This document shows positions 9,468 through 46,918 of a stretch of 64,000 nt of DNA, one piece after another; within the stretch, counting starts at the first letter, position 1; every line of letters starts with the position of its first letter. The stretch is from the NCBI GenBank assembly GCA_044868005.1, contig JBIOVX010000157.1:8257-72256 (forward strand), in the 5' to 3' direction. The position numbers were made by a program, and so were the translations under genes. The notes beneath the pieces were generated by a model. That model was not told the origin of the DNA. It worked only from the letters and a program-made list of their open reading frames with translations, and ran no database searches. Source of the stretch: Thermoanaerobaculia bacterium. GTDB taxonomy: Bacteria > Acidobacteriota > Thermoanaerobaculia > Multivoradales > UBA5704.

Positions 9468-12400
9468 ATGCAAGGTAGGGAGCATTCCAGGTTGTTGCTG
9501 AGGAGAGCGGGCCTGCTGGCCGTCCTCCTCGGGATCGTCCTCGCCGGTGCGGCGTGGGCCACCAAGCCTCCGGAGCCGCAGAGTTACATCGACCACAAAG
9601 CCTTCTTCAAGCCGGAGCTGTATATCAGCAGCTCCCAGGTGCCCATCGAGGAGATCCTCGACCAACTCCCCAACCGGGCAGCATGGGGAGAGTACCGGGC
9701 GGCGCGGGAGAAAGCCTTCGGACCGTCGTTCGACGGAGTGCCGCTCGCCTACATCGATCCGCGCTCCGGAGCGGCCACGAGCCTGATGGGCTCCGTGCCG
9801 CTGATCCCCGGCCGCGGCGTGGGCAACCACATCAAGCTCGCGGACCTCTCCGCCAAGCTGGGCCGTCCCATCACCAAGGCGAACAACAAGGCCGTTCTCG
9901 ACGCCGTGCTCGACTACATCAACGCGAACCAGGGCGTGCTCGGCATCGACTTGACGCAGATGGGAAACGGCAGCGCCGCCGACGTCAGCGCGGACCTGTG
10001 GCAGGTCAGCATCCCGCAGTATTACAAAGGCGTGCCGGTGCGCTACGGCCGCATCGCGGCGACGATCAACCGCGGCAACCTGGTGCTGATCGGCACCGAG
10101 ACCTGGGGCGACGTGAAGGGCCTCAGCCACGTGCCGAAGCTCACCGGCGCGCAGGCTTTGACCGCCGGTTTCGCCTACGTCGGCGGCCCGTCGGCCAACG
10201 ACAAGATCCTGCGCCAGCCGACGCTGGAGATCATCCCCGTCAGCGCCACGGGTCCGGTCGGCGCCGGCTACGACCACCGCCTGACCTGGACCTTCGTCTT
10301 CCAGCGCTATCCGGACGACGCCAAGTGGGAGGTCATCGTCGACGCCCACAAAGGCGAGGTCCTCGCACTGCAGGACATCAACCACTACGCCAACCAGCCG
10401 ATCACCGGCGGCGTCTACCCGCTGACCGACACCGGCATCTGTCCCACCCCGGGCACCTGCGGCACGATGCAGAGCAACTGGCCGATGCCGTTCGCCGACA
10501 CCGGCTTCGCGTCGCCCAACAACTTCACCAACAGCGGCGGCATCTACAACTACACCAGCGGCACGGCGACGACGACGTTGACCGGCCGCTACGTCGACAT
10601 CGTCGACAACTGCGGCGCCATCAGCAACAGCTCGGCGACCGGCGCGATCAGCCTCGGCGGCAGCAACAACCAGCACGACTGCACGACCGGCGGCGGCTCG
10701 GCGGGCAACACTCCGGCCTCCCGCTCGGCGTTCTATGAAGTCAACAAGATCGCCGAGCAAGCGCGCGGCTGGCTGCCCACCAACACCTGGTTGAATTCCG
10801 TTTTGACCGCCAACGTCAACATCAACCTGACCTGCAACGGGTTCTGGAACGGCTCGACGATCAACTTCTACCGCTCGGGAGGCGGCTGCCGCAATACCGG
10901 CGAGATCGCCGCCGTCTTCGATCACGAGTGGGGCCACGGGATGGACGACAACGACGCCGCCGGCGCGCTCTCCAACTCCAGCGAAGGCTACGCCGACATC
11001 GCGGCGATCTACCGCCTGCAATCCTCCTGTGTCGGCTACGGCTTCTTCGCCACCCTCGACGACGGCTGCGGCATGACCTCCGACGGCACCAGCTTCAACA
11101 CCAACGAGGCGCAGCAGGGCGCGTCCCACTGCGACCTCGACTGCTCGGGCGTGCGCGACGCCGACTACCTCAAGCACAGCCCGAACACGCCGGACACCGC
11201 GCTCGGCTACGTCTGCACCTCCTGCATCACCGGCACCGGCCCCTGCGGCCGGCAGGTACACTGCGCCGCGGCGCCGACGCGGCAGGCGGCGTGGGACTTC
11301 GCCGCGCGCGACCTGCAGAGCGCGCCCTTCAACCTCGACAGCCAGACGGCCTTCATCGTCGCCAACCGCATCTTCTACCAGGGCAGCGGCAACGTCGGCG
11401 CCTGGCACTCCTGCACCTGCGGCTCCTCCTCCAGCGGCTGCGGCGCCACCAACGGCTACATGCAGTGGCTGGCGGCGGACGACGACAACGGCAACATCAA
11501 CGACGGCACGCCGCACATGACGGCGCTGTTCAACGCCTTCAACCGCCACGGCATCGCCTGCGCGACGCCGACGCCGGTCAACAGCGGTTGCGCCGCCGGG
11601 CCGAGCGCCGCTTCGACGCTCTCCGGCACCGCCGGCGATTACCAGTCGTCGCTGTCGTGGGGCTCGGTGGCGGGAGCGACCCGCTACTGGGTGTTCCGCA
11701 CCGAGGGGCACGCGGGCTGCGACTTCGGCAAGACCAAGATCGGCGAGACCACCGGCCTCTCCTTCACCGACACGCAGGTCGCGGCCGGCCGCAACTACTA
11801 CTACAACGTAGTCGCCGCGGGCTCCTCGAACGCCTGCTCCGGCCTCGCCAGCAACTGCGTCACCGTCACTCCGACGGCGGGCACGCCGACGCCGGACTTC
11901 AGCATCTCGTGCAGCCCGTCGAGCCTGACGGTCACCCAGGGCAGCAACACCACGAGCACCTGCACGGTGACCTCGATTAACGGCTTCGCCAGCTCCGTCA
12001 GCCTCTCGTGCGCCAATCTGCCTTCCGGCTCGAGCTGCAGCTTCAGCCCGAGCTCGGTGACGCCGACGGCGAGCTCCACCCTGACGGTCTCCGCGACCGC
12101 CGGGGCCGCGACCGGCACCTTCACCATCCAGGCCCAGGGCACGAGCGGCGCCACGACGCGCAGCACCAACCTGACGCTCACCGTCAATCCGAGCGGCGGC
12201 GGCGGCGCGCAGACGGCGGTATTCGACGCCACCCTCCAGGCGCCGAAGTGCGCCACGGTGGGGATCTCCTGCGACACCGGCCCGACGCTCGTCAACGGGC
12301 GCGACACCCTGGCCGGCGGCACCGAGCCCAACCAGCCCAACACCATCAACGACTCCTGCGCCGACGGCACCTCCGGCACCTTCCACAGCGACGAGTCGAA

Positions 12401-13283
12401 CGACCGGCTGAAGGTCTCCACCGTCGACGGCACCAACTTCGCGCCGGGCAAGAGCGTGCGCATCGACGCCACCGTGTTCGCCTGGGCCGGCGGGCCGACC
12501 AACGACCACCTGGACCTCTACTTCGCGGCCAACGCCAACAGCCCGAGCTGGACCTTCCTCACCACCATCACGCCGACGGCCGCCCAGGGAGGCGTGCAGA
12601 CGTTCAGCGCCACCTACACGCTGCCCGCGGGCGCGCTGCAAGCGGTGCGGGCGCAGTTCCGCTATCAGGGAACGGCGTCCTCTTGCACCGCCGGCTCGTT
12701 CAACGACCACGACGACCTGGTCTTCGCGGTCACCAGCAATCCGGTGACGACGGTGTTCTTCGACGACTTCGAGACCAGCCTGGGCTGGACGACGAACCCG
12801 AACGGCACCGACACGGCGACCACCGGCCAGTGGGAGCGGGGGAATCCGGAGGATACTAACGACAGCGGAGCCAAGCAGCTCGGCACCACGGTCTCCGGCG
12901 TCAACGATCTGGTGACGGGAGCGCTGGCGGGAGCGAGCGCCGGCGCGTTCGACGTCGACAGCGGCACGACCTCCACCCGTTCGCCCGCCATCACCCTGCC
13001 GTCCACCGGCGTCCTGACGCTGTCGTTCAACTACTACCTGGCGCACGGCACCAACTCCTCGACCGCCGACTTCCTGCGCGTCAGCGTGGTCGGCAGCACC
13101 ACGACGCAGGTCTTCCAGGAGCTGGGCGGCACCGAGAACGACAACGGCGTCTGGGCGACGGCCTCGGCCGACATCAGCGCCTTTGCCGGACAGACCGTCC
13201 GCATCCTCATCGAGGCCGCGGACGCCTCGACGGCCAGCCTGGTGGAAGCCGGCGTCGATGACGTGAAGATCACGCAGCAGTAG
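9468..13283 (+). CDS. Secreted multidomain zinc metalloprotease (gluzincin-like, HEWGH...E), paralog 1, 1271 aa
   Basis: The ATG at 9468 follows GGAGGA. A signal peptide (LLAVLLGIVLAGAAWA) is followed by a propeptide-like region. The zinc site is FDHEWGHGMDDND with SEGYADI 16 residues after the second His, comparable to thermolysin NEAISDI. After a Cys-rich region come an Fn3-like domain, an Ig-like domain, an extra domain of about 180 aa, and a C-terminal jelly-roll-like domain. Confidence 0.85.
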   Translation: MQGREHSRLLLRRAGLLAVLLGIVLAGAAWATKPPEPQSYIDHKAFFKPELYISSSQVPIEEILDQLPNRAAWGEYRAAREKAFGPSFDGVPLAYIDPRSGAATSLMGSVPLIPGRGVGNHIKLADLSAKLGRPITKANNKAVLDAVLDYINANQGVLGIDLTQMGNGSAADVSADLWQVSIPQYYKGVPVRYGRIAATINRGNLVLIGTETWGDVKGLSHVPKLTGAQALTAGFAYVGGPSANDKILRQPTLEIIPVSATGPVGAGYDHRLTWTFVFQRYPDDAKWEVIVDAHKGEVLALQDINHYANQPITGGVYPLTDTGICPTPGTCGTMQSNWPMPFADTGFASPNNFTNSGGIYNYTSGTATTTLTGRYVDIVDNCGAISNSSATGAISLGGSNNQHDCTTGGGSAGNTPASRSAFYEVNKIAEQARGWLPTNTWLNSVLTANVNINLTCNGFWNGSTINFYRSGGGCRNTGEIAAVFDHEWGHGMDDNDAAGALSNSSEGYADIAAIYRLQSSCVGYGFFATLDDGCGMTSDGTSFNTNEAQQGASHCDLDCSGVRDADYLKHSPNTPDTALGYVCTSCITGTGPCGRQVHCAAAPTRQAAWDFAARDLQSAPFNLDSQTAFIVANRIFYQGSGNVGAWHSCTCGSSSSGCGATNGYMQWLAADDDNGNINDGTPHMTALFNAFNRHGIACATPTPVNSGCAAGPSAASTLSGTAGDYQSSLSWGSVAGATRYWVFRTEGHAGCDFGKTKIGETTGLSFTDTQVAAGRNYYYNVVAAGSSNACSGLASNCVTVTPTAGTPTPDFSISCSPSSLTVTQGSNTTSTCTVTSINGFASSVSLSCANLPSGSSCSFSPSSVTPTASSTLTVSATAGAATGTFTIQAQGTSGATTRSTNLTLTVNPSGGGGAQTAVFDATLQAPKCATVGISCDTGPTLVNGRDTLAGGTEPNQPNTINDSCADGTSGTFHSDESNDRLKVSTVDGTNFAPGKSVRIDATVFAWAGGPTNDHLDLYFAANANSPSWTFLTTITPTAAQGGVQTFSATYTLPAGALQAVRAQFRYQGTASSCTAGSFNDHDDLVFAVTSNPVTTVFFDDFETSLGWTTNPNGTDTATTGQWERGNPEDTNDSGAKQLGTTVSGVNDLVTGALAGASAGAFDVDSGTTSTRSPAITLPSTGVLTLSFNYYLAHGTNSSTADFLRVSVVGSTTTQVFQELGGTENDNGVWATASADISAFAGQTVRILIEAADASTASLVEAGVDDVKITQQ

Positions 13284-13407: not shown

Positions 13408-13566
13408 CACTCCGGCGGCGGCCCGCACAGAGTCTTGTAGGAGTTTCCTCAGGCAGTCCCAAACAGCGGTCCTTTCCATGCGTGTCCAGCGGCGGCCGGC
13501 GATGCCCGGATCGCCGCATGACCTTTATGCCCCGGCACGAACCGGGGCCCACTGGAGGAGGAGCTC
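13408..13566 (+). promoter_or_regulatory. Structured 5' leader of metalloprotease gene 2
   Basis: It has the same conserved 5' block as 9268.., then hairpins 13497..13516 (CGGCGAT-gcccgg-ATCGCCG) and 13529..13548 (GCCCCGG-cacgaa-CCGGGGC), and then TGGAGGAGGAG before the ATG. Confidence 0.4.
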
Positions 13567-16500
13567 ATGGAACAGTCGAAGCTGTTGCGTCTTTCCCGGA
13601 GGGTTGGCCTGCTCGCGGTCTGTCTCGGAATCGCGCTCGCCGGCGCGCTCTGGGCGGTTACTCCCAAGCAGCCCGGGGGGTCCTACCTCGACCAGAAGGC
13701 TTTCTTCAAGCCGGAGCTGTACATCAGCAGCTCGCAGGTGGCCCTCGAGGACATCCTCGATCAGCTCCCGAACCGGGCGGCGTGGGGAGAGTACCGGGCG
13801 GCGCGGGAGAAGGCCCTCGGGCAGAGGGCTGACGGATTACCCCTCGCCTACATCGATCCGCGCTCCGGAGCGGCCACCAACCTGGTGGGCTCGTTCCCGG
13901 TGATTCCCGGCCGCGGCGTGGGCAATCACATCAAGCTCGCGGACCTGAGCAAGACTTTGGGCCGTCCCGTCACCAAGGCGAACGACAAGGCCGTCCTCGA
14001 CGCCGTGCTCGACTTCATCGCCGCGAACCAGGACGTGCTCGGCGTCGACCTGGAGCAGATCGGAGACGGCCGCGCCGCCGACGTCACGGACGACCTGTGG
14101 CAGGTCAGCATCCCGCAGTATTACAAAGGCGTGCCGGTGCGCTATGGCCGCGTGGTGGCGACGATCAACCGCGGCAACCTGGTGCTGATCGGCACCGAGA
14201 CCTGGGGCAACGTGAAGGGCCTCAGCCACGTGCCGAAGCTCACCGGCGCCGAGGCCTTGACCGCCGGTTTCGCCTACGCCGGCGGCCAGTCGGCGATGGA
14301 CCAGATGCTGCGCCAGCCGGCGCTGGAGATCATTCCCGTCAGCGCCGAGGGTCCGGTCGGCGCCGGCTACGACCACCGCCTGGCCTGGACCTTCGTCTTC
14401 CAGCGGCTGCCCGACGATGCCCAGTGGGAGGTGATCGTCGACGCCCACAAAGGCGAGGTCCTGGCGCTGCAGGACGTCAACCACTACGTCAACCAGCCGA
14501 TCACCGGCGGCGTCTATCCGCTGACCGACACCGGCATCTGCCCGACGCCGCAGACCTGCGGCACCATGCAGAGCGGCTGGCCGATGCCGTTCGCGGACAC
14601 CGGCTTCGCCTCGCCCAACAACTTCACCAACAGCGCCGGCATCTACAACTACACCAGCGGCACGGCGACGACGACCCTGACCGGCCGCTTCGTCGACATC
14701 GTCGACAGCTGCGGCGCCATCAGCAACAGCTCGGCGACCGGCGCCATCAGCCTCGGCGGCAGCAACAACCAGCACGACTGCACCACCGGCGGCGGCTCGG
14801 CGGGCAACACCCCGGCCTCCCGCTCGGCGTTCTATGAGGTGAACAAGATCGCCGAGCAGGCGCGCGGCTGGCTGCCCACCAACACCTGGCTGAACGCCCG
14901 CCTGACCGCCAACGTCAACATCAACCTGACCTGCAACGGCTTCTGGAACGGCTCGACGATCAACTTCTATCGCTCGGGAGGCGGCTGCCGCAACACCGGC
15001 GAGATCGCCGCGGTCTTCGATCACGAGTGGGGCCACGGCCTGGACGACAACGACGCCGCCGGCGTGCTCTCCAACTCCAGCGAAGGCTACGCCGACATCG
15101 CGGCGATCTACCGCCTGCAGTCCTCGTGCGTCGGCTACGGCTTCTTCCAGACGCTCAACGACGGTTGCGGCACGACCTCGGACGGCACCGGCTTCAACAC
15201 CAACGAGGCGCAGCAGGGCGCCGCCCACTGCGACCTCGACTGCTCGGGCGTACGCGACGCCGACTACCTGAAGCACAGCCCGAACACGCCGGACACCGCG
15301 CTCGGCTACGTCTGCACCTCCTGCCTGACGGGCAGCGGCCCGTGCGGCCGGCAGGTGCACTGCGCCGCGGCGCCGACGCGGCAGGCGGCGTGGGACTTCG
15401 CGGCGCGCGACCTGCAGAGCGCGCCCTTCAGCCTCGACAGCCAGACGGCCTTCATCATCGCCAACCGCATCTTCTACCAGGGCAGCGGCAACGTCGGCGC
15501 CTGGCACTCCTGCACCTGCGGCTCCTCCTCCAGCGGCTGCGCCGCGGCGAACGGCTACATGCAGTGGCTGGCGGCGGACGACGACAACGGCAACATCAAC
15601 GACGGCACGCCGCACATGACGGCGCTGTTCAACGCCTTCAACCGTCACGGCATCGCCTGCTCGACGCCGACGGCGGTCAACAGCGGCTGCGGCGGCGGGC
15701 CCAGCGCCGCGCCGACGCTCTCCGGCACGGCGGGCAACTTCCAGTCCTCGTTGTCGTGGAATTCCGTCTCGGGAGCCACCCGGTACTGGGTGTTCCGCAG
15801 CGAAGGCCACGCCGGCTGCAACTTCGGCAAGACCAAGATCGCCGAGACGACCGGCCTCTCCTTCACCGACACACAGGTGGCCAACGGCCGCAACTACTAC
15901 TACAACATCGTGGCCGCCGGCGCCTCCAACGCCTGCTCCGGGCGGGCCAGCAACTGCGTCACGGTGACTCCGGTCGCCTCGGCCACGCCGGACTTCACCA
16001 TCTCCTGCAGCCCGTCGAGCCTCTCGGCCGCCCAGGGCGGCAGCGCCACGAGCACCTGCACGGTGACCTCGCAGAACGGCTTCAACAGCGCCGTCAGCCT
16101 GTCGTGCAGCGGCCTGCCGAGCGGCGCGACCTGCTCGTTCTCCCCGGCCTCGGTGACGCCACCGGCCAACGGCAGCGCCAACAGCTCGCTGACCGTCAAC
16201 GTGTCGGGCAGCACGCCCACCGGCACCACCAATTTCAATGTCAACGGCGTCTCCGGCTCGCTGTCGCATAGCGCCGCCATGTCGCTCACCGTGACGGGTA
16301 CCACGGTCACCGTCTTCTTCGACAACTTCGAGACCAGCCTGGGGTGGACGACCAACCCGAGCGGCACCGACACGGCGACCACCGGCCAGTGGGAGCGCGG
16401 CGATCCGGAGCAGACGACCGACGGCACGAACGTCATGCAGCTCGGCACCACCGTCAGCGGCACCAACGACCTGGTGACCGCACGCCTGGCCGGCGCCTCG

Positions 16501-36692: not shown

Positions 36693-37568
36693 TCAACGAG
36701 TCTCCCGTAGTTCCAGCCAGATCCCGTGAGTCAGGGATGGCGGCAAGAAGAGGCTTTTTCCGCCTCCGTTTCGCGTCCGATGGGGCAGACGGACGTGTAA
36801 GGCGGCGCGAGCGGCAGCGAGACTCCGGACGCCGACCGTAGCGCCGACTATCTTCCGTCCGGGCATCAGCCGTCTCGATGCCGGCAGGAGATAGATCTGC
36901 GCGTCCTGAAGAGAGACGACCTCAGCGCGCACAGGCTCAGGCGCCAGGACGGTCTGCTTTCGGACGGCACCGCCGAGCGCCGCCAGCAGCTTCCGCTCCG
37001 GCGAGAGATCGTCGCCGGCCAGCCAGACCGCGATCAGCGAATACGCGGTGTTCGGGTGGGCGAAATGTTCCGGCCGGTCGGTGGGCGAACGGTTGCGGTG
37101 AGCGAAGAAGATGTACCCCAAAGGATGCGATGGCGGAAAGTCGACCATGCCGCCGGCGCGCTCATAGCTCATTCCCGCCGCGTCGAGCCGCCGCGCGACG
37201 AGGCCGCTCTCCGGCTCGAAGAGCGCGAAGAACGCCGGACCGTCGCCGCCCGCGAGATGGCGTCGGTACTGCGCCGTGAGGTCGTCCCGCGCCTCCGGAG
37301 CCGTCAGCAGCTCGATCTCGGTGCCGTCCGGAAACTTCACGTGCTGATTCCGGATGCCGTTGTCGTGCGGCCGCCCGGGCTTCAAGGCAAAGCCCAGATC
37401 GCGATATCGCTGCGCCGTCGCCTCGAGGTCGTTGGTGGCGACGATGACGTGGTCGAGGCCCAGGACCGCGGTGCCTTCCTCAACAGTTGGCGGCTCGGCT
37501 TGGAGCCGCACCACTGCGATTACGGACAGCAGGCTCAAGGCAATTTTGGCGCCGCTCATCGGGTTCAC
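36693..37568 (-). CDS. VOC / glyoxalase-like domain protein, secreted
   Basis: It has a signal peptide followed by LGLDHVIVATNDLEATAQRYRDLGFALKPGRPHDNGIRNQHVKFPDGTEIELL, a glyoxalase-like fold. Confidence 0.7.
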   Translation of the reverse strand: MNPMSGAKIALSLLSVIAVVRLQAEPPTVEEGTAVLGLDHVIVATNDLEATAQRYRDLGFALKPGRPHDNGIRNQHVKFPDGTEIELLTAPEARDDLTAQYRRHLAGGDGPAFFALFEPESGLVARRLDAAGMSYERAGGMVDFPPSHPLGYIFFAHRNRSPTDRPEHFAHPNTAYSLIAVWLAGDDLSPERKLLAALGGAVRKQTVLAPEPVRAEVVSLQDAQIYLLPASRRLMPGRKIVGATVGVRSLAAARAALHVRLPHRTRNGGGKSLFLPPSLTHGIWLELRETR

Positions 37569-37606: not shown

Positions 37607-37903
37607 ATGTGCCGTAACATCAAGACCCTCTTCAACTTCGAGCCGCCTGCGACGGAGGACGAGGTGCGCGACGCAGCGCTCCAATTCGTCCGCAAGCTGA
37701 GCGGCTTCACCAAGCCCTCCAAGGCCAACGAAGCCGCCTTCGAAACGGCGATCGAGGAAATCGCCCATTCCGCCCAGACTCTTCTCGCCGCTCTGGTCAC
37801 GAATGGTGAACCCCGTAATCGCGACGTCGAAGCGGCGAAGGCTCGCGCCAGGGCGGCGGTGCGGTTCGGCAAGGAGGAGGCGCGGGCGCCAGCAGGGGGT
37901 TAG
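37607..37903 (+). CDS. DUF2277-like small protein
   Basis: The ATG at 37607 follows CAGGAG. MCRNIKTLFNFEPPATEDEVRDAALQFVRKLSGFTKPSKANEAAFE is the characteristic DUF2277 N-terminus. Confidence 0.75.
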   Translation: MCRNIKTLFNFEPPATEDEVRDAALQFVRKLSGFTKPSKANEAAFETAIEEIAHSAQTLLAALVTNGEPRNRDVEAAKARARAAVRFGKEEARAPAGG

Positions 37904-38271
37904 GCCGCCTGAGACAACAAACGCCGCATCGTCTCGGGCTCGCGCTCGATCGCTTGGAGCAGAGCGCGGGCTGGAGCATCGGGTGTGGTGCGAAGCTGTT
38001 CCCAATCTCGCAGAGTGCTGACAGGCAGTCGGAACGCTTCCGCGAATTCGAACTGTGTCATTCCGAGCCGTTGCCGCAACGCCTTGACGGGCGAAACGCG
38101 GCGCATCTTAGCCAGCGCCTCCGAGTCGAGGGGCTGGGCATCGGGATCAGAGAGGGCCGCCGCCAACACCTCTTCGTCCGTCATTGCGTTCACTCGTGCC
38201 CAGTCGGTCTCGCCGCGAGGCGGCGGCTCACCAGGCTTCAGGATCACCCGCGTAGTACCTGTCTTGCTCAT
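37900..38271 (-). CDS. HTH (XRE-like) antitoxin partnered with the BrnT-family toxin
   Basis: The ATG at 38271 gives MSKTGTTRVILKPGEPPPRGETDWARVNAMTDEEV...GMTQFEFAEAFRLPVSTLRDWEQ, which contains an HTH. It lies downstream of the DUF497 toxin gene and overlaps it by 44 nt. Confidence 0.7.
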   Translation of the reverse strand: MSKTGTTRVILKPGEPPPRGETDWARVNAMTDEEVLAAALSDPDAQPLDSEALAKMRRVSPVKALRQRLGMTQFEFAEAFRLPVSTLRDWEQLRTTPDAPARALLQAIEREPETMRRLLSQAA

Positions 38272-38515
38272 GTCGCGTGGCCCTCCGGGCAGAGACGATG
38301 CGGCACGTCCTGTCACCGCGCTGGGTTGTGACAACGAACAGGACACCGCCGACCGCCATACCGATGACCCGCATCCGCTCCTCGCCGTACTCAAAGCGGG
38401 TATCCAGTTCTTCAAGCCGGTTTGGATCCTCAAGCGCCGCGATGGAATCCGGGAAATCGATGCCGTGCCTGCGGCGATTCGCGACAGCCTTCGCGGCATC
38501 CCACTCGTACTCCAC
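38228..38515 (-). CDS. brnT: BrnT-family (DUF497) toxin
   Basis: MEYEWDAAKAVANRRRHGIDFPDSIAALEDPN...RVIGMAVGGVLFVVTTQRGDRTCRIVSARRAT is the typical DUF497 pattern. Confidence 0.8.
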   Translation of the reverse strand: MEYEWDAAKAVANRRRHGIDFPDSIAALEDPNRLEELDTRFEYGEERMRVIGMAVGGVLFVVTTQRGDRTCRIVSARRATRHEQDRYYAGDPEAW

Positions 38516-38633
38516 CTCGGCAAGACTACTGATTACCCGTAGTCATGTCAACGCGCTGGCTCGACTGCTGAGCTCGTGATCCGCCGCCGGATCTCCACCT
38601 CTGGACCCTGCTACGATTCCTCCATGAGCACCG

Positions 38634-38863
38634 TTAGCCTGCGAGAACTCCAACAGGACACAGACGCGGTATTGGATCGCGTTGAGGCCGGGGAGCACCT
38701 CGTCGTGATGCGTGGCGGTCGCCCGGTCGCCGAGCTGCGGCCCGCCCCTGCCACCCAGCCCGGTCCGCGACCGTTCGGTCTGTGCGCCGGAGCGTTCACG
38801 GTTCCGGACGACTTCGACGCGCCGCTGTCTGAGGAGATCCTGGGAGGGTTCGAGGAGCGATGA
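38634..38863 (+). CDS. Phd/YefM-family antitoxin with no cognate toxin gene
   Basis: MSTVSLRELQQDTDAVLDRVEAGEHLVVMRGGRPVAELRP is a Phd/YefM N-terminus. At the overlapping ATGA where a toxin gene usually starts, the ORF is only ATG AGC AGG TAG. Confidence 0.7.
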
Positions 38864-38882
38864 GCAGGTAGGACGAGAGCCT

Positions 38883-39062
38883 ATGATCGATGATCCGATC
38901 ATCGAAGAACTGCACCGTCATCGCGAGGAATTGTTCCGCGAGTTCGGCAATGATCCGGAGGCTCTCATCAGGTACCTCCAAGAGAAAGAGCGAAGCTCCG
39001 GCCGGACGGTTCAGTCTCCGCCTGCGCCCTCCGCGAAGCGGCCTCGCCGTGCTCGTTATTGA
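38883..39062 (+). CDS. Small hypothetical protein (59 aa)
   Basis: MIDDPIIEELHRHREELFREFGNDPEALIRYLQEKERSSGRTV... is helical with a basic tail. Whether it is really coding is uncertain. Confidence 0.4.
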   Translation: MIDDPIIEELHRHREELFREFGNDPEALIRYLQEKERSSGRTVQSPPAPSAKRPRRARY

Positions 39063-39119
39063 CGGGGATTCGGTGGCCTCTTGCCCGGCTGAGTACGGAA
39101 TGTATTTCGGGGAAGACCT

Positions 39120-39371
39120 ATGGCGCCCCTGACCGTCGATCTGCCAGAAAAACTCCTTTCCGCCCTCTATCAGTCTCGTGACGAGGCAGAGAAGGACGTG
39201 CGCCTCGCGATCGCCATCGAATGGTACCGGCGCGGCGCGATCTCCCAGGGCCGAGCCGCCGAGATCGCCGGGCTCGCACGGGCGGATTTCATTGCCGAGC
39301 TCGCAGCTAGGAAAATCGACGTGATCCAAGTCGATCTTGAGGAGCTAAAGCGGGAGATCGGGCTTGGCTGA
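39120..39371 (+). CDS. UPF0175-family antitoxin-like protein
   Basis: The 83-aa ORF contains ...RLAIAIEWYRRGAISQGRAAEIAGLARADFIAELAARKIDV, which is typical of UPF0175. Confidence 0.75.
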   Translation: MAPLTVDLPEKLLSALYQSRDEAEKDVRLAIAIEWYRRGAISQGRAAEIAGLARADFIAELAARKIDVIQVDLEELKREIGLG

Positions 39372-39445
39372 GGTCGGTCGTTGATGCCTCGCCACTCATT
39401 CATCTCTCCCGAGCCTGTCAACTCTTGCTCGCCAGAACTTTGATG
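39371..39445 (+). pseudogene. Remnant of a DUF3368 (PIN-like) toxin gene, with only about the first 22 codons recognisable
   Basis: The frame starting at the UPF0175 stop reads RSVVDASPLIHLSRACQLLLAR, like the N-terminus of DUF3368 partners of UPF0175. There is no proper start codon. Similarity ends where the low-GC segment and the converging 664-aa gene begin. Confidence 0.45.
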
Positions 39446-39452
39446 CTCTTGT

Positions 39453-41447
39453 TTAATGATCAAACTCATCTACCATCGCAAGCAGGAACAACAACAGATT
39501 GTCCGCCCGGATCTGTAAGTCCGTCAGCTCTCGCGGCGAAAATCCGGCAACCACTTGATGCGTGCCCTTATTAAGGTTTTCTAAAACTGCAAATACAACT
39601 TTCACATCCTTAACCACAAACTGGGTGTAGCGAACACCCCGTCCGTTGCGATTGATGTAGAGCAGCTTCGCTCTCCTGGTGGGCCGACCATCTTTGTAGT
39701 GCCCTGGATCAGAAGTCCATTTCCGTACTTGGTCGTCAGGCGCAACGTCATCCAGCAGCTTGAGCAGAAGCTCGCGCTGAGACACACAGTAGTGCCGCAC
39801 TCGGTCAGGATTGTCCGAATTGAGCGCTGCTTTCGCGCCTAACCACAAAGGCAGAAGGACTGGGGTCCGCGCAGCGAGGCGGCCCCGAAGGGTACTGCCA
39901 CCTTCCTCCGAAACCCTCTGCCGGAGCTCGCTTACCTCCTCTTCCTGCTCTTCTTCTTGGGCCTCCGGCTTCTGGCTGCTGCTACGAACAGTTAGGCTAC
40001 TCAAGAGATTTGAGTGAGCAAACACCTCAACGGCGGATAGTCCTTCTAGGTAGGGCGACCACCCCAATCCTGCCGACTGCTCAACAAGAGCTTCCTGCAG
40101 ATGCTTGTAAGCCAAAGAGAACTGAGCAGTACCACGAGCAATCTCTGCTACATGATCAAAGGTCCCAGCGAATCGTTGCCAGTCTACGCCAGACAAGGCG
40201 TACGCGCTGAACCGGTCAATCTCGGAATATTGCTCCGCGAGTGTGCGTGCCAAGTCTTGCTTGTCGCGGATGGACCGAGCCACAGTATCGAGTTCGGCAG
40301 CGGAGGCATACCCCGCTGCGAGCAGCTTGGCAACGTCCCCAAAGGCGGCACGACGCAGAGCAAGCTCGTCTTGTAGCGTTTCGTAAAGTCTGGCATCTCG
40401 GCCTGGTTCGAGATGCTCCATGAAAGCAGCAGCAGCCGTCCTCGTCTCGAACATCTCCTGAGCGAGAGAGCGACCGGCAACCTGATCCCATTGTGTGATT
40501 CGATCCTGAATCTCCCGCAAGGCGGAGACACTAGAAAAACCGTCGTCTAAGTACCGAGACATTGCCGCGCCTCCTTTGTTGATTGACAGCACCTGCTCCG
40601 CCATTCGAGAATGCTCCATCGCTACACGGGCAACATTCATTTCGCAGAAAGCACGGGATGCATCTCCGACGACCGTCGCAGACGCCCTCGCGACCTCCGA
40701 CAACAAGTCGTCGAAGGGTAACCGTATTAGGTCGTTCGCCGCCAGAGAAGCAAAATTCTTGGCTTCGACCAAACCCAGGTTCTTGGCTGCGATTGAACTC
40801 AGATTTTGGGCCGCTATCGAATCCAAGTTCCTTGCTGCGATAGATCCAAGTTCCTTCGCCGCAACGGAAGGGAAACGATTCGCCGCAAGTGACATTTGAT
40901 CTTTCGCTACCACGGCTGCTGCTTCGAGTGTCGGCTGCAACCGTCGGATCTCCTCTGTCGCCCCGATCATTTCCTGGACCGCCGGTTCCATTTTATGCAC
41001 CCGTTCTCGAGCCTCGTCGAGATAGGGCTGGAGAAACCGAACCTGCTCAGCTGTATCTTGAAGCTGCGGGGCCATTTGGGAAAACTCGGCTGCCGCCGCC
41101 AGGATCGGCCCCACCTGAGCAGCGATTTGTCTGATCTGACGATCTAGCCCCCGGTACACAGCCGGAATGCTTTCGAGAGCCCAGACCTTCTCCTTCAGGC
41201 TGGCCCCGGCCTGTACCTGCTTTTCAATCTCCGCCAGTGCTGCGGGGATTTTAGACGCAGGGTAAAACCTTCTCAGGGCTTTAGTCAGGCGCTGCCTGAG
41301 TTGCTCCTCTCGTTTGCGGAGCAGCTCGGCTTCCTCCTCGGGACCGCGCGGCAGAGAGCCCGGGTTTGCGAGAGTCATATGGACGCGAAAGCGAGGCCGA
41401 CCCGTATCCGGCGTGGGTCGCGCCCCTTCCTTTTGATCCTTTTCCAT
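39453..41447 (-). CDS. Orphan 664-aa alpha-helical protein on a low-GC island (function unknown)
   Basis: The track ORF is 39453..41540. The ATG at 41447 is preceded by GGAGGG at 8 nt. The ORF is uninterrupted despite the lower GC. It has six tandem 8-aa repeats, an acidic linker (QEEEQEEE), and a globular C-terminal domain of about 150 aa. I saw no Walker motif or recognisable catalytic motif. Confidence 0.75.
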   Translation of the reverse strand: MEKDQKEGARPTPDTGRPRFRVHMTLANPGSLPRGPEEEAELLRKREEQLRQRLTKALRRFYPASKIPAALAEIEKQVQAGASLKEKVWALESIPAVYRGLDRQIRQIAAQVGPILAAAAEFSQMAPQLQDTAEQVRFLQPYLDEARERVHKMEPAVQEMIGATEEIRRLQPTLEAAAVVAKDQMSLAANRFPSVAAKELGSIAARNLDSIAAQNLSSIAAKNLGLVEAKNFASLAANDLIRLPFDDLLSEVARASATVVGDASRAFCEMNVARVAMEHSRMAEQVLSINKGGAAMSRYLDDGFSSVSALREIQDRITQWDQVAGRSLAQEMFETRTAAAAFMEHLEPGRDARLYETLQDELALRRAAFGDVAKLLAAGYASAAELDTVARSIRDKQDLARTLAEQYSEIDRFSAYALSGVDWQRFAGTFDHVAEIARGTAQFSLAYKHLQEALVEQSAGLGWSPYLEGLSAVEVFAHSNLLSSLTVRSSSQKPEAQEEEQEEEVSELRQRVSEEGGSTLRGRLAARTPVLLPLWLGAKAALNSDNPDRVRHYCVSQRELLLKLLDDVAPDDQVRKWTSDPGHYKDGRPTRRAKLLYINRNGRGVRYTQFVVKDVKVVFAVLENLNKGTHQVVAGFSPRELTDLQIRADNLLLFLLAMVDEFDH

Positions 41448-41713
41448 ATAGCAACCCTCCACATCGAAGTAATTTTTAAGCCTAGCACAGGCGGAGCTTA
41501 GACCACAAGATCTCGGGGCGTAAGTCTTCCGCCTCCCCAACTAACAGTTCCTCAGTTCGCTTGCGAGTTCACGCTCGCCTGGTTCCAGGCACTCTCTGGA
41601 CTAGCAGCCTCGTACGCTGGTGCACCAAAGGTCTCGGCATTTAAGTCTTGGCGTTCAGAAGAGGCTCCCCGCCGACAGGTGCCGAACAGGGTGCCGAACA
41701 GGTGCTCTTCCTC

Positions 41714-41743
41714 TTGACAATCGAGAGGAGATCCGCGTACCCT
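41714..41743 (+). promoter_or_regulatory. Putative sigma-70 promoter of the padR-permease operon
   Basis: A perfect TTGACA (41714..41719), an 18-nt spacer and TACCCT (41738..41743) lie 36 nt before the ATG at 41779. A tandem ACAGG(G)TGCCGA repeat (41675..41705) lies immediately upstream. Confidence 0.35.
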
Positions 41744-41778
41744 CTTCCTCTTCCCTAGAGCATCGAGAGGAAACACAC

Positions 41779-42117
41779 ATGGGCAAGGACAGCGGAGATC
41801 TCATCCAAGGCACGCTCGACATGCTGGTGCTCAAGGCGCTGGCGCTCGAGCCGATGCATGGGTGGGGGATCACGGAACGCATCCAGCAGTGGTCGGAGAA
41901 CGAGCTCAGCGTCAACCAGGGATCGCTCTACCCCTCTCTCTATCGCCTGCAGCGGCAGGGATGGATCACCTCGGAGTGGCGGACGACGGAGAACAACCGC
42001 CGCGCCCGCTTCTACAAGCTCACCGCCTCCGGACGGAAGCAGCTCGCCGAGGAGCGGCGAAACTGGGAGCGTCTTTCACGGGCGGTGAACCTCGTCCTCG
42101 AAACCACCCTTTCCTGA
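41779..42117 (+). CDS. PadR-family transcriptional regulator
   Basis: LIQGTLDMLVLKALALEPMHGWGITERIQ...VNQGSLYPSLYRLQRQGWITSEW...RRARFYKLTASG is a canonical PadR wHTH. Confidence 0.9.
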   Translation: MGKDSGDLIQGTLDMLVLKALALEPMHGWGITERIQQWSENELSVNQGSLYPSLYRLQRQGWITSEWRTTENNRRARFYKLTASGRKQLAEERRNWERLSRAVNLVLETTLS

Positions 42118-44816: not shown

Positions 44817-44836
<20 letters not shown>

Positions 44837-45710
44837 TTGGGGTCACCGTCGCCAGCCCTTCCCCCGAGGCAGCCTTGATCGTGAGCACCTTGGGATCGGA
44901 CTCCCCGCCTCCCGGCTCGGGATTGACGACCGTGATCTCGATCTCCAATCGTCCGGCAAACTCCGCGGTAGCGAGCTTTGCCGTGAGGCTTTGCGGGCTG
45001 GCGAAAGTAGAGGGCAGCTTCTTGCCAGAGGCCTTGACGACGGAATCCTTGACAAAACCCCTACCGGCCAGGGTGAGATCCGCCACCGCGCCCGCTGCAA
45101 CGCTATCGGGGGTGATCGAGGCGAGTTCCGGCCGCGGGTTCTCGCTCAGCTTGTCCTCGCGCTTGCGGTCTTCCTTGGTGGCAAACATCGTATCGAAAAC
45201 CTCGGCGAGCTTGTCGGCCGCCTGCTTCGAGAAAAGACCGGCGAGCCCCGAGAAAGACATGATGCCGAAAAGGTTGAGATCGTCGGCGGTACCGGCACCT
45301 GTGGCCGTTCCGGCGAGACCTCCGCGAACGACGAAATAGACAAAGAGGGCGAGGGCGGCGCCTATGGGTATCCGCAGGACGTACCACCAAGTCCAGGTGG
45401 ACTTAAAGCGCGCGTTGCCGACGTAGCTGGCGAAAGATTGCGCGGCATGCACGTAGCTGCCCAGCGCGCCGGCGAGCAGGACGAGGACGAGCAGCCGCAC
45501 ATCCGCATCCAGATCAACCCGAGCTCCGAAGACATAGCTTTTCTCGATCCATTGCCTGCCGGCGGCTGCCTGCACGGTGCCGGCAGCCCCCGCCGCAACT
45601 GGCTTGGTTTGAGGCCAGAAGGCGACCACGAAGTACGCCAGCAACAAGCCGATGAGGAGGAGAGCGACTCCCAGCCAGCGAGTAGGATTCGGCGACATGT
45701 CCTCGTCCAT
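44817..45710 (-). CDS. Membrane protein with a C-terminal IPT/TIG-like Ig domain
   Basis: The ATG at 45710 follows GGAGG. The product has 4-5 TM helices followed by ITPDSVAAGAVADLTLAGRGF...LEIEITVVNPEPGGGES. The upstream part of track ORF 44817..46160 has no supporting features. Confidence 0.6.
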
Positions 45711-46051
45711 GGCATTGCCTCCGCAGGTGAAGAAAAGATGCGCGTTTCTTGCTAAGTTACCACAGCGGCCCTCGATCCGGCCAAGGCGCTGGAGGCGGGT
45801 CTTCCACCTCGGGGCGCCTCGCATTAGGATTGGACGTCCCGGGTTGCCGAATTCCCGGCACGGTAGGTGCATGAATTCAATGGGTTGAGAGCCCCGGGCT
45901 GATGCCGGCCCCTGAAAGCGTCGAAATAGCGGCGCTTCCTCTCCCGTTGAAGAGTCGGTAAGGCGATCCTCCCAGGCGGAGCGATCCCTCGCAGCAGAAG
46001 TCACCAACTGGGCATTGGATCGATGCCAAGGGAAAGCCGAGGAAAGGAACC

Positions 46052-46918
46052 ATGAAATCGCGAAATACACGCGTTCTCGTCTTCGCCGCCACGCTACTCG
46101 CCGCGCCCCTCCTGCCCGTGTGGGGCCAAGAGGGCCAGGGGCCGGTTCACCAGCGTCCACAGCCGAAGAAGCAACCCAAGGCGCCGCAGGTGATCGTCAA
46201 GGAGACCCCGATCGAAGAGGGGGATCCTCAGCAGGGCACGCCTCAGGATCAGATGGCCTCCCACGACCAGGACCAGACCGCGCCGCCGCAGACCACGCCT
46301 CCGCCGCAGAGCACGCCTCCTGAGCAGACGACCCCTCCCGAGCAGACCCCGCCTCCCGCGCAGGGCACCGCTCCGCAGACGCCTCCGGCGCAGGGCACCA
46401 CGCCTCCCGCGGCGGCCGGCCCGAAGATCGTCAAGCCGGAAGAGATCGGAATCTCCTTCGCGCCGCCGCAGGGCTGGCAGCAGGGAGATCCCACCAAGTT
46501 CAGCCTGCCGGGCGACATCTGCTGCGCCTGGTCGCCGGACAACGTCGCCTCGATCGTGGCCTTCGTGCAGAGGCCGGGCAAGCCCCTGATCCCGAAGGTG
46601 CTCATGGAGCAGAGCGCGCAGGCACTGCAGAGCGCCGTCGGCGCCGAGGTGAAAACCAAGGAGCTCAAGGACATCGGCGGCATGAAAGGCTTCTCGCTGG
46701 TGGTGACGGCGCCGGGCAATGGTGCAGCGATCGACGGCAAGGGGAACGTCTCCACCACTCAGCACTGGGTGGCCGTGCCGCGCGACAAGGACGTGATCAT
46801 CTTCCTGATGACGACGCCCGACGAGGCCTTCGCGCAGAACGAGCAGGTCTTCCAGAGCCTGCTGAGCACATTGAAGATCACGGGCACGCAGACGGCGGAC
46901 CAGCAGGCGTCGAAGTAG
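46052..46918 (+). CDS. Secreted protein with a Pro/Thr/Gln-rich linker and a C-terminal alpha/beta domain
   Basis: It has a signal peptide (VLVFAATLLAAPLLPVWG), a low-complexity stretch QTTPPPQSTPPEQTTPPEQTPPPAQGT, and a 160-aa globular domain. Confidence 0.65.
   Translation: MKSRNTRVLVFAATLLAAPLLPVWGQEGQGPVHQRPQPKKQPKAPQVIVKETPIEEGDPQQGTPQDQMASHDQDQTAPPQTTPPPQSTPPEQTTPPEQTPPPAQGTAPQTPPAQGTTPPAAAGPKIVKPEEIGISFAPPQGWQQGDPTKFSLPGDICCAWSPDNVASIVAFVQRPGKPLIPKVLMEQSAQALQSAVGAEVKTKELKDIGGMKGFSLVVTAPGNGAAIDGKGNVSTTQHWVAVPRDKDVIIFLMTTPDEAFAQNEQVFQSLLSTLKITGTQTADQQASK

Follow-up and report, generated by a model that had tools for sequence, protein, structure and literature searches.

The 64,000-nucleotide stretch of DNA analysed here (the window), taken from contig JBIOVX010000157.1 of a Thermoanaerobaculia bacterium (GenBank assembly GCA_044868005.1), carries an intact gene for a 664-aa protein which, judged by its sequence, is a new and clear member of the widespread, uncharacterised PF18165 (pP_pnuc_1) family. 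We favour, with a probability of roughly 0.55, the interpretation that this gene is a horizontally acquired, stand-alone PF18165 defence effector, which occupies the right end of a small and quickly reshuffled toxin–antitoxin (TA) and defence islet extending from DUF2277 to the PadR promoter.

Specifically, residues 533–652 of the protein match PF18165 with an E-value of 7.5e-25; the score, 87.6 bits, exceeds the curated gathering cut-off of 26.3, and the match covers profile positions 11–130 of 133. In addition, the protein matches the PADLOC model Aga_Nuclease (PDLC02413) at 4e-8. An exhaustive HMMER search recovered 1192 related protein clusters at E ≤ 0.001, of which 820 reach E ≤ 1e-10; the family comprises at least 1192 clusters at 50% identity and spans bacteria and archaea. 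A typical related protein has 350–450 aa and aligns to residues ~400–660 of the query. PF18165 is matched by all 100 aligned relatives, and Aga_Nuclease by 96 of them. A word-indexed homology search, by contrast, returned no match for the full protein and a single match for its C-terminal 139 aa, which reflects the limited sensitivity of that search rather than orphan status, because the exhaustive search found so many clusters. An earlier note, made from the DNA sequence alone, had described the gene as an orphan without a family, a description that is refuted by the PF18165 score and the number of related clusters. The Pfam name of the family, 'predicted pPIWI-associating nuclease', stems from its association with pPIWI.

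In the family alignment, two residues, G537 and R551, are invariant, and D548, S556, R558, E559, P570, W577, P589, T590, R591, R594, F610, D614, G628 and H630 are near-invariant. The 664-aa protein retains all of these residues except R594, and also H552 and R647, and carries Glu in place of the family's Q640.

The open reading frame (ORF) of 1995 bp is uninterrupted. Its ATG at position 41447 is the correct start, as the alignments with two cousins, P0008 and P0011, begin at residue 1 and the public gene calls agree. The start is preceded, at a spacing of 7 nt, by the Shine–Dalgarno sequence GGAGGG (41455–41460, CCCTCC on the plus strand), and a simple scan found no convincing sigma-70 promoter for the gene in 41448–41708. 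Five public contigs of the same population carry a call for an identical protein; they come from no fewer than two Logan runs and from a metagenome-assembled genome (MAG), GCA_044868925.1. The long intact frame with its good ribosome-binding site, the tandem 8-residue repeats (six had been counted before; we count six to seven) and the acidic linker that the earlier note had read from the letters are all borne out. The repeat units read, in order, AANRFPSV, AAKELGSI, AARNLDSI, AAQNLSSI, AAKNLGLV, EAKNFASL and AANDLIRL, and a 24-nt periodicity of the underlying DNA is weakly visible. Coordinates of these and all other features are collected in the table.

The N-terminal part of the protein is not unique to it. 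BLASTP aligns P0008 (593 aa) to residues 1–480 with 34% identity and P0011 (503 aa) to residues 1–137 with 58% identity, and the 8-residue repeats also occur in P0008. In both cousins the C-terminus matches Mrr_cat (E = 3e-20 and 3e-18, respectively) in place of pP_pnuc_1, and among the best 150 matches of the 664-aa protein these two Mrr_cat-ended clusters are the only others that contain its N-terminal 300 residues. P0008 further matches PDC-S02, a single-gene defence candidate in PADLOC, as well as a type IV restriction endonuclease (REase) model. These architectures amount to an effector swap: the C-terminal partner of one N-terminal module is pP_pnuc_1 in the 664-aa protein and a PD-(D/E)xK domain of the Mrr type in its two cousins. 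Since the alternative partner, Mrr_cat, is an established nuclease fold, the shared module constitutes the best contextual evidence that pP_pnuc_1 acts as an interchangeable nucleic-acid-targeting effector. Like the 664-aa gene, the genes of the P0008/P0011 type stand alone next to antitoxin-like genes; their effector, however, has the alpha/beta restriction-endonuclease fold, whereas pP_pnuc_1 of the 664-aa protein is predicted to be all-helical. As a broader proposal, which we put forward tentatively and regard as rather unlikely in its full extent, PF18165 proteins would be widespread autonomous single-gene immune effectors, with an all-helical C-terminal nuclease fold that lacks a solved relative and with variable N-terminal repeat arrays as infection sensors, among which the window protein and its Mrr cousins would form a subfamily with the same sensor and a swappable nuclease, independent of Argonaute and of restriction–modification (R-M) systems.

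The layout of the 664-aa protein recurs in most members of the family, which also show a helical region ahead of the domain, an acidic linker and an N-terminal repeat region, the window protein being longer than the usual 350–450 aa. N-terminal tandem repeats that are unrelated in sequence occur in about 13–18 of 154 PF18165 proteins (P0003, P0062, P0068, P0071, P0087, P0152 and others), with periods of 8, 10, 15, 16, 20, 22, 30, 32 or 40 aa and up to 11 copies, and many of the repeat-bearing proteins have an acidic run just ahead of the conserved domain. As for the two Mrr-ended cousins, each adjoins an NTP_transf_2 (MNT antitoxin-like) gene (L028, 4424–4987, minus strand; L029, 9487–9798, plus strand), and no HEPN gene is called in the neighbourhood of either, an arrangement that echoes the orphan UPF0175 antitoxin beside the 664-aa gene.

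Relatives carrying PF18165 are recurrently flanked by defence or mobile-element genes. In locus L026 (8700–13949), hsdR, hsdM and hsdS are followed by the PF18165 gene, an AriA/GajA/NsnB-like ATP-binding cassette (ABC) ATPase gene and a gene for an unknown 312-aa protein, with DUF3368 and integrase genes nearby. In L023, the PF18165 gene overlaps a methyltransferase (MTase)–Mrr gene (11095–12711) by 4 bp, and at the same site in L024 the MTase–Mrr gene is cut down to a 43-aa stub (11032–11163) next to an intact PF18165 gene. Another relative lies beside a DpnII REase and PIN-type TA genes in a Methanothrix MAG. Further relatives are plasmid-borne: in Phaeobacter the gene is third in order after an Eco57I methylase (MTase) and a PaeR7I endonuclease, in Rathayibacter it converges with a VapC/HTH pair, and in Dinoroseobacter, where the plasmid is conjugative, it neighbours a reverse transcriptase. 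A metagenome scan added a 1143-aa prokaryotic Argonaute (pAgo) directly upstream of the PF18165 gene in L040, a type IIG MTase–REase directly downstream of it in L060, HmaC/DUF499 in L041 and a type I methylase in L054. The 79 neighbour ORFs also include HEPN_AbiU2 (twice), AbiEii, TIR_2, SduA_C, DUF4145, ParE, an integrase and a type IV secretion system coupling protein. Overall, R-M genes are found near relatives in at least six loci, several relatives being operonic with them at spacings of 4 to 10 bp, and a pAgo neighbour at one of about 30 loci. An all-against-all BLASTP comparison of 125 neighbour ORFs revealed no recurrent partner gene, and no PF18165 member was found in viral or phage collections. 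The setting that the earlier note had emphasised, a foreign gene among TA loci, thus holds for the 664-aa gene itself, which lies in a TA cluster, and is matched by the defence and mobile-element settings of its relatives, so that a role in defence or abortive infection is a reasonable guess.

In line with horizontal acquisition, the gene is compositionally foreign. The G+C content lies at 0.49–0.60 in 300-bp windows across 39.4–41.8 kb, compared with 0.70–0.75 at 34–35.5 and 42.5–44.7 kb, and 39–42 kb is the G+C minimum of the entire window at 1-kb resolution. The segment 39372–41708 has a G+C content of 0.564, the window as a whole averaging 0.683 (z = -3.8 in 2-kb windows), and the tetranucleotide distance from the window profile reaches its maximum, the strongest signal in the window, at 39501–41500 (z = 4.2). 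For the gene alone, the G+C content is 0.565 and that at third codon positions (GC3) is 0.589, compared with GC3 values of 0.84–0.93 in the S41 peptidase, PadR and ADOP permease genes and 0.71–0.79 in the TA genes. Of the sharply bounded low-GC segment claimed earlier, the dip is confirmed; the abrupt step is confined to the right edge, as on the left the genes at 36.2–39.4 kb are already intermediate (0.61–0.67 rather than 0.70) and the transition is gradual.

Comparison with two relatives, L018 and L010, both retrieved by a single scan of a genome collection with the upstream S41 peptidase as anchor, places the gene in a variable islet that contains BrnA/BrnT, a Phd-like gene with a 59-aa ORF, UPF0175 with the stub described below, and the 664-aa gene. 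In L018 (89% protein identity, blastn segments mostly 89–90%), the order is S41 peptidase, a 140-bp glyoxalase remnant, DUF2277, an unrelated 364-aa gene, PadR and ADOP permease. Its homology to the window ends at the DUF2277 stop (~37.89 kb) and restarts at 41709, just ahead of the PadR -35 box TTGACA. L010 (86% protein identity, and 88% nucleotide identity over the common genes) shares with the window the glyoxalase gene, DUF2277 and the Phd-like gene with the 59-aa ORF, the latter two at 85% nucleotide identity and with no recognisable toxin alongside. In L010, an AF2212-like/PIN (VapBC-type) pair (13514–14253, minus strand; PIN 2e-11, AF2212-like 1e-9) fills the slot of BrnA/BrnT, a like-for-like exchange of TA cassettes between conserved flanks, and of UPF0175 only the last 76 bp survive; beyond them lies an unrelated 199-aa ORF, after which the contig terminates. 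The L018 and L010 alleles therefore identify 37.9–41.7 kb as a cassette hotspot and a mosaic islet, of which the 664-aa gene is the most foreign cargo. On the public contig, Pfam annotations of PadR and MacB/FtsX support the identity of the right flank. On a small scale, the locus cleanly illustrates how cassettes turn over in a TA/defence hotspot of Thermoanaerobaculia-like Acidobacteriota.

Several observations weigh against the reading of the gene as a recently acquired defence nuclease. PF18165 genes fall below their flanks in G+C content at 22 of 26 loci, so that low G+C is a trait of the family and a recent arrival of the 664-aa gene need not follow from it. At position 594, the 664-aa protein alone has Lys, where 99 of 100 sequences have Arg, and it carries K563 and D566 where 59% and 73% of members, respectively, have His; R594K and the missing His residues at 563 and 566 could impair the protein. 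The term 'nuclease' for PF18165 is a curated, Pfam-level prediction, and in the searchable literature no PF18165 protein was found to have been tested biochemically or genetically. Structure prediction adds little in this respect. AlphaFold on the single sequence gave an unusable model (predicted local distance difference test, pLDDT, 41), and with the alignment it gave an all-helical model of residues 350–664 with a pLDDT of 88.4 and a predicted template modelling score (pTM) of 0.82. With this model as query, neither PDB nor BFVD gave a Foldseek match at E ≤ 0.001, and a sequence-profile search of PDB returned no relative, only coiled-coil noise; the fold therefore lends no independent support to catalysis. 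Lastly, some relatives stand alone among ordinary or housekeeping genes, and the enrichment of defence genes among the neighbours is a plain count, without a formal background model.

The left end of the segment bears on how the gene arrived. The UPF0175 antitoxin gene, named in the earlier note, is intact. In intact pairs on plasmids, the DUF3368 toxin gene starts 8 bp before the stop of its UPF0175 antitoxin. At the corresponding position of the window (39364), the canonical toxin start is TTG, and its frame stops after six codons, whereas DUF3368-like residues, VVDASPLIHLSRACQLLL (cf. VVNASPLITLAKVGQLGLL), sit in the next frame and resemble the N-termini of DUF3368 partners of UPF0175 homologues. 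Beyond ~22 codons, at ~39437, the similarity is lost, 15 bp short of the stop codon that ends the convergent 664-aa gene. A six-frame translation of the window contains the motif, which was defined post hoc, a single time, with ~0.005 occurrences expected. Scored against a DUF3368 profile built from three sequences, the stub comes first among 1151 six-frame segments, but only at E = 0.69. Pfam gave no match to the 74-aa stub translation, pairwise BLASTP with a real DUF3368 protein did not recover the N-terminal match and tblastn of the stub against plasmids found none; the assignment consequently rests on position and on a weak profile rank, by which the DUF3368 stub is probably real. UPF0175 is now an orphan antitoxin without a working toxin partner.

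It is unlikely, in our view, that a discrete mobile segment brought the gene into an intact DUF3368 gene of a working UPF0175/DUF3368 pair and thereby split the toxin, as the earlier note had suggested. The stub, beginning where the partner gene should and ending so close to the stop of the low-GC gene, at about the point where composition shifts, is what such an insertion would leave, and this part of the suggestion is plausible. A distal DUF3368 fragment, however, is found neither at 41448–41708 nor elsewhere in the window, and neither L018 nor L010 yielded an empty site with an intact UPF0175–DUF3368 pair. The segment has no meaningful flanking direct or inverted repeats, no tRNA was found in the window and no Rfam element at the islet edges, and no integrase or recombinase is present among the annotated neighbours, so that a discrete mobile element (an insertion sequence or integrative island), with its recombinase, terminal repeats, target-site duplication or tRNA target, was rejected. 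Moreover, the stub is frameshifted near its start, which implies that it decayed stepwise; the TA module of L010 has its breaks at different points, and in L018 the whole stretch is replaced by another gene, which fits recombinational cassette turnover with deletion. The stub thus originated by replacement or deletion and not by a clean split.

More improbable still is a gene stranded as an accessory of an Argonaute or R-M system, its partners lost on transfer, and by now inert or decaying. The pPIWI association behind the family name, the one relative that follows a pAgo and the several relatives that are operonic with R-M genes are consistent with such an origin, as are the substitutions R594K, H563K and H566D at conserved positions. 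In the window, phmmer with the L040 pAgo found no pAgo in the six-frame translation, and there is no R-M gene among the annotated genes flanking the 664-aa gene from ~29 to 45 kb. Against it, the 1995-bp frame is intact with a good Shine–Dalgarno sequence and the identical protein is kept on five contigs of the same population; most of the examined relatives have no pAgo or R-M neighbour, and no partner recurs. The protein also possesses its own long N-terminal module, and the sharing of this module with stand-alone Mrr genes argues for an autonomous sensor–effector design.

Known latent nucleases provide a useful comparison for the R-M-linked relatives. In its gene order, L026 resembles the type I R-M loci that harbour PrrC-type latent nucleases. 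PrrC combines an ATPase and a HEPN-like anticodon nuclease in one chain. The PrrC/RloC types resemble PF18165 in the R-M-embedded setting of several relatives, one of which is followed by an ABC-type ATPase gene, and the concept of a latent nuclease that provides a second line of defence suits the family; the 664-aa protein differs from them in having neither a HEPN signature nor an ATPase domain, and in the absence of adjoining R-M genes. The characterised Argonaute-associated nuclease bAgaN is a RecB-like PD-(D/E)xK enzyme (PMC10620215). It is an Argonaute-associated effector of abortive infection, and the PF18165 relative in L040 likewise follows a long pAgo, but bAgaN has the PD-(D/E)xK DNase fold whereas pP_pnuc_1 is modelled as all-helical, and the 664-aa gene has no pAgo partner.

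The faint likeness of the C-terminal domain to HEPN/DUF4145 modules, suggested in the earlier note, does not survive. No member of 100 matches a HEPN Pfam family at E ≤ 1. The family's R-x4-H motif, 59% conserved, sits in helix 2 of the domain, and the 664-aa protein reads R558-ELLL-K563 there; the Arg that had been reported as missing is therefore present, as R558, and what is missing is the His after it, found in 59% of members. A HEPN-type domain was rejected on the grounds of the Pfam result, the lack of a Foldseek match for the model of residues 350–664, and a motif that is poorly conserved and lies outside the canonical helix. AbiJ, AbiU2 and DUF4145-type abortive-infection proteins are alike in combining a variable N-terminal region with a small helical C-terminal effector and in occurring in defence islands, and HEPN_AbiU2 and DUF4145 genes adjoin some PF18165 relatives; their C-terminal domain is HEPN, however, and the PF18165 domain has no HEPN match.

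Equally doubtful as the stranded accessory is a coiled-coil structural or regulatory protein whose C-terminal domain has a binding role, for a ligand or for nucleic acid, and no cleavage activity: the protein is predicted to be wholly helical with long coiled-coil-like segments, its weak similarities are to coiled-coil families only, no structural relative of known catalysis was found and the putative Rx4H-like motif is not kept, yet the domain is interchangeable with the bona fide nuclease Mrr_cat on one N-terminal module, contains roughly twelve near-invariant residues (Asp, Arg, His, Glu, Ser and Thr), and belongs to a family whose neighbours are dominated by nucleic-acid-targeting defence genes.

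We propose that the 664-aa protein would act as a single-gene defence effector, in which the N-terminal coiled-coil and repeat module may serve as a sensor or oligomerisation scaffold, and the all-helical C-terminal domain, rich in Arg, His and Asp, may be a nucleic-acid-cleaving effector that is held inactive until infection. More speculatively, the acidic linker might function as an autoinhibitory pseudo-substrate. Arrival of the gene, or a later recombination, would have removed all but the first ~22 codons of DUF3368 and so orphaned UPF0175. Two facts from the locus are of direct use, namely that pP_pnuc_1 occurs in proteins without an Argonaute partner and that it is exchanged with an Mrr nuclease on a shared module; the Argonaute-independent context and the Mrr swap make the predicted function of PF18165 directly testable.

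Table. Features of the 664-aa gene, its protein and the surrounding islet (window coordinates).
Feature	Position	Strand	Basis or remark
664-aa gene, intact	39453–41447	-	ORF list, composition, public gene calls; stop codon 39453–39455
Upstream non-coding region of the 664-aa gene	41448–41708	-	Part of the lineage-specific segment; L018 homology absent until 41709
N-terminal module, aa 1 to ~300	40548–41447	-	Also in P0008 and P0011 (BLASTP)
Seven degenerate 8-residue tandem repeats, aa 188–243	40719–40886	-	Translation laid out in register
Helical region conserved in the family, aa 400–532	39852–40250	-	Most of the 150 best matches align from query aa 400–440 on
Acidic linker, aa ~490–514	39906–39980	-	Acidic runs also in relatives
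pP_pnuc_1 domain, predicted nuclease, aa 533–652	39492–39851	-	Pfam PF18165 and PADLOC Aga_Nuclease
UPF0175 antitoxin gene, intact, 83 aa	39120–39371	+	Pfam UPF0175, E = 6.3e-24
Probable DUF3368 toxin remnant	39364–39437	+	Position, weak profile rank
Variable islet, DUF2277 stop to PadR promoter	37904–41708		blastn against L018 and L010, ORFs, boundary sequences
BrnA-like antitoxin	37900–38271	-	HTH_3, 1.4e-5
BrnT toxin	38228–38515	-	Pfam BrnT_toxin, 2.4e-23
Phd/YefM-like antitoxin gene	38624–38863	+	Pfam PhdYeFM_antitox, 3.4e-7
59-aa ORF (MIDDPIIEELHRHREELFREFGNDPEALIRYLQEKERSS...)	38883–39062	+	Gene calls; no family match
PadR promoter (TTGACA 41714–41719) and PadR gene (41779–42117), then ADOP/MacB-type permease	41709–42117	+	Conserved right flank

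Further variation was observed in and around the islet. The 364-aa gene of L018 (1520–2614, plus strand) has a G+C content of 0.60–0.64, a weak match to PNP_UDP_1 of the phosphorylase superfamily (E = 7e-4) and no PADLOC match, and may be another uncharacterised cargo of the hotspot. The Glyoxalase_3 gene on the left (36693–37568, minus strand) is intact in the window and in L010, the remnant kept in L018 lying at 1001–1138. At the right boundary, a 12-bp tandem repeat, GGTGCCGAACAG, in about three copies (41671–41705) is flush with the restart of homology at 41709, a short distance ahead of the PadR -35 box; it may represent an operator or a scar of recombination, or have arisen by chance. 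Beyond the ADOP permease, a 447-aa ORF (44817–46160, minus strand) with a G+C content of 0.63, a GC3 of 0.70 and a weak TIG domain match is missing from L018, where ClpS/ClpA come immediately after the permease, and marks a further variable site, 3 kb away from the islet.

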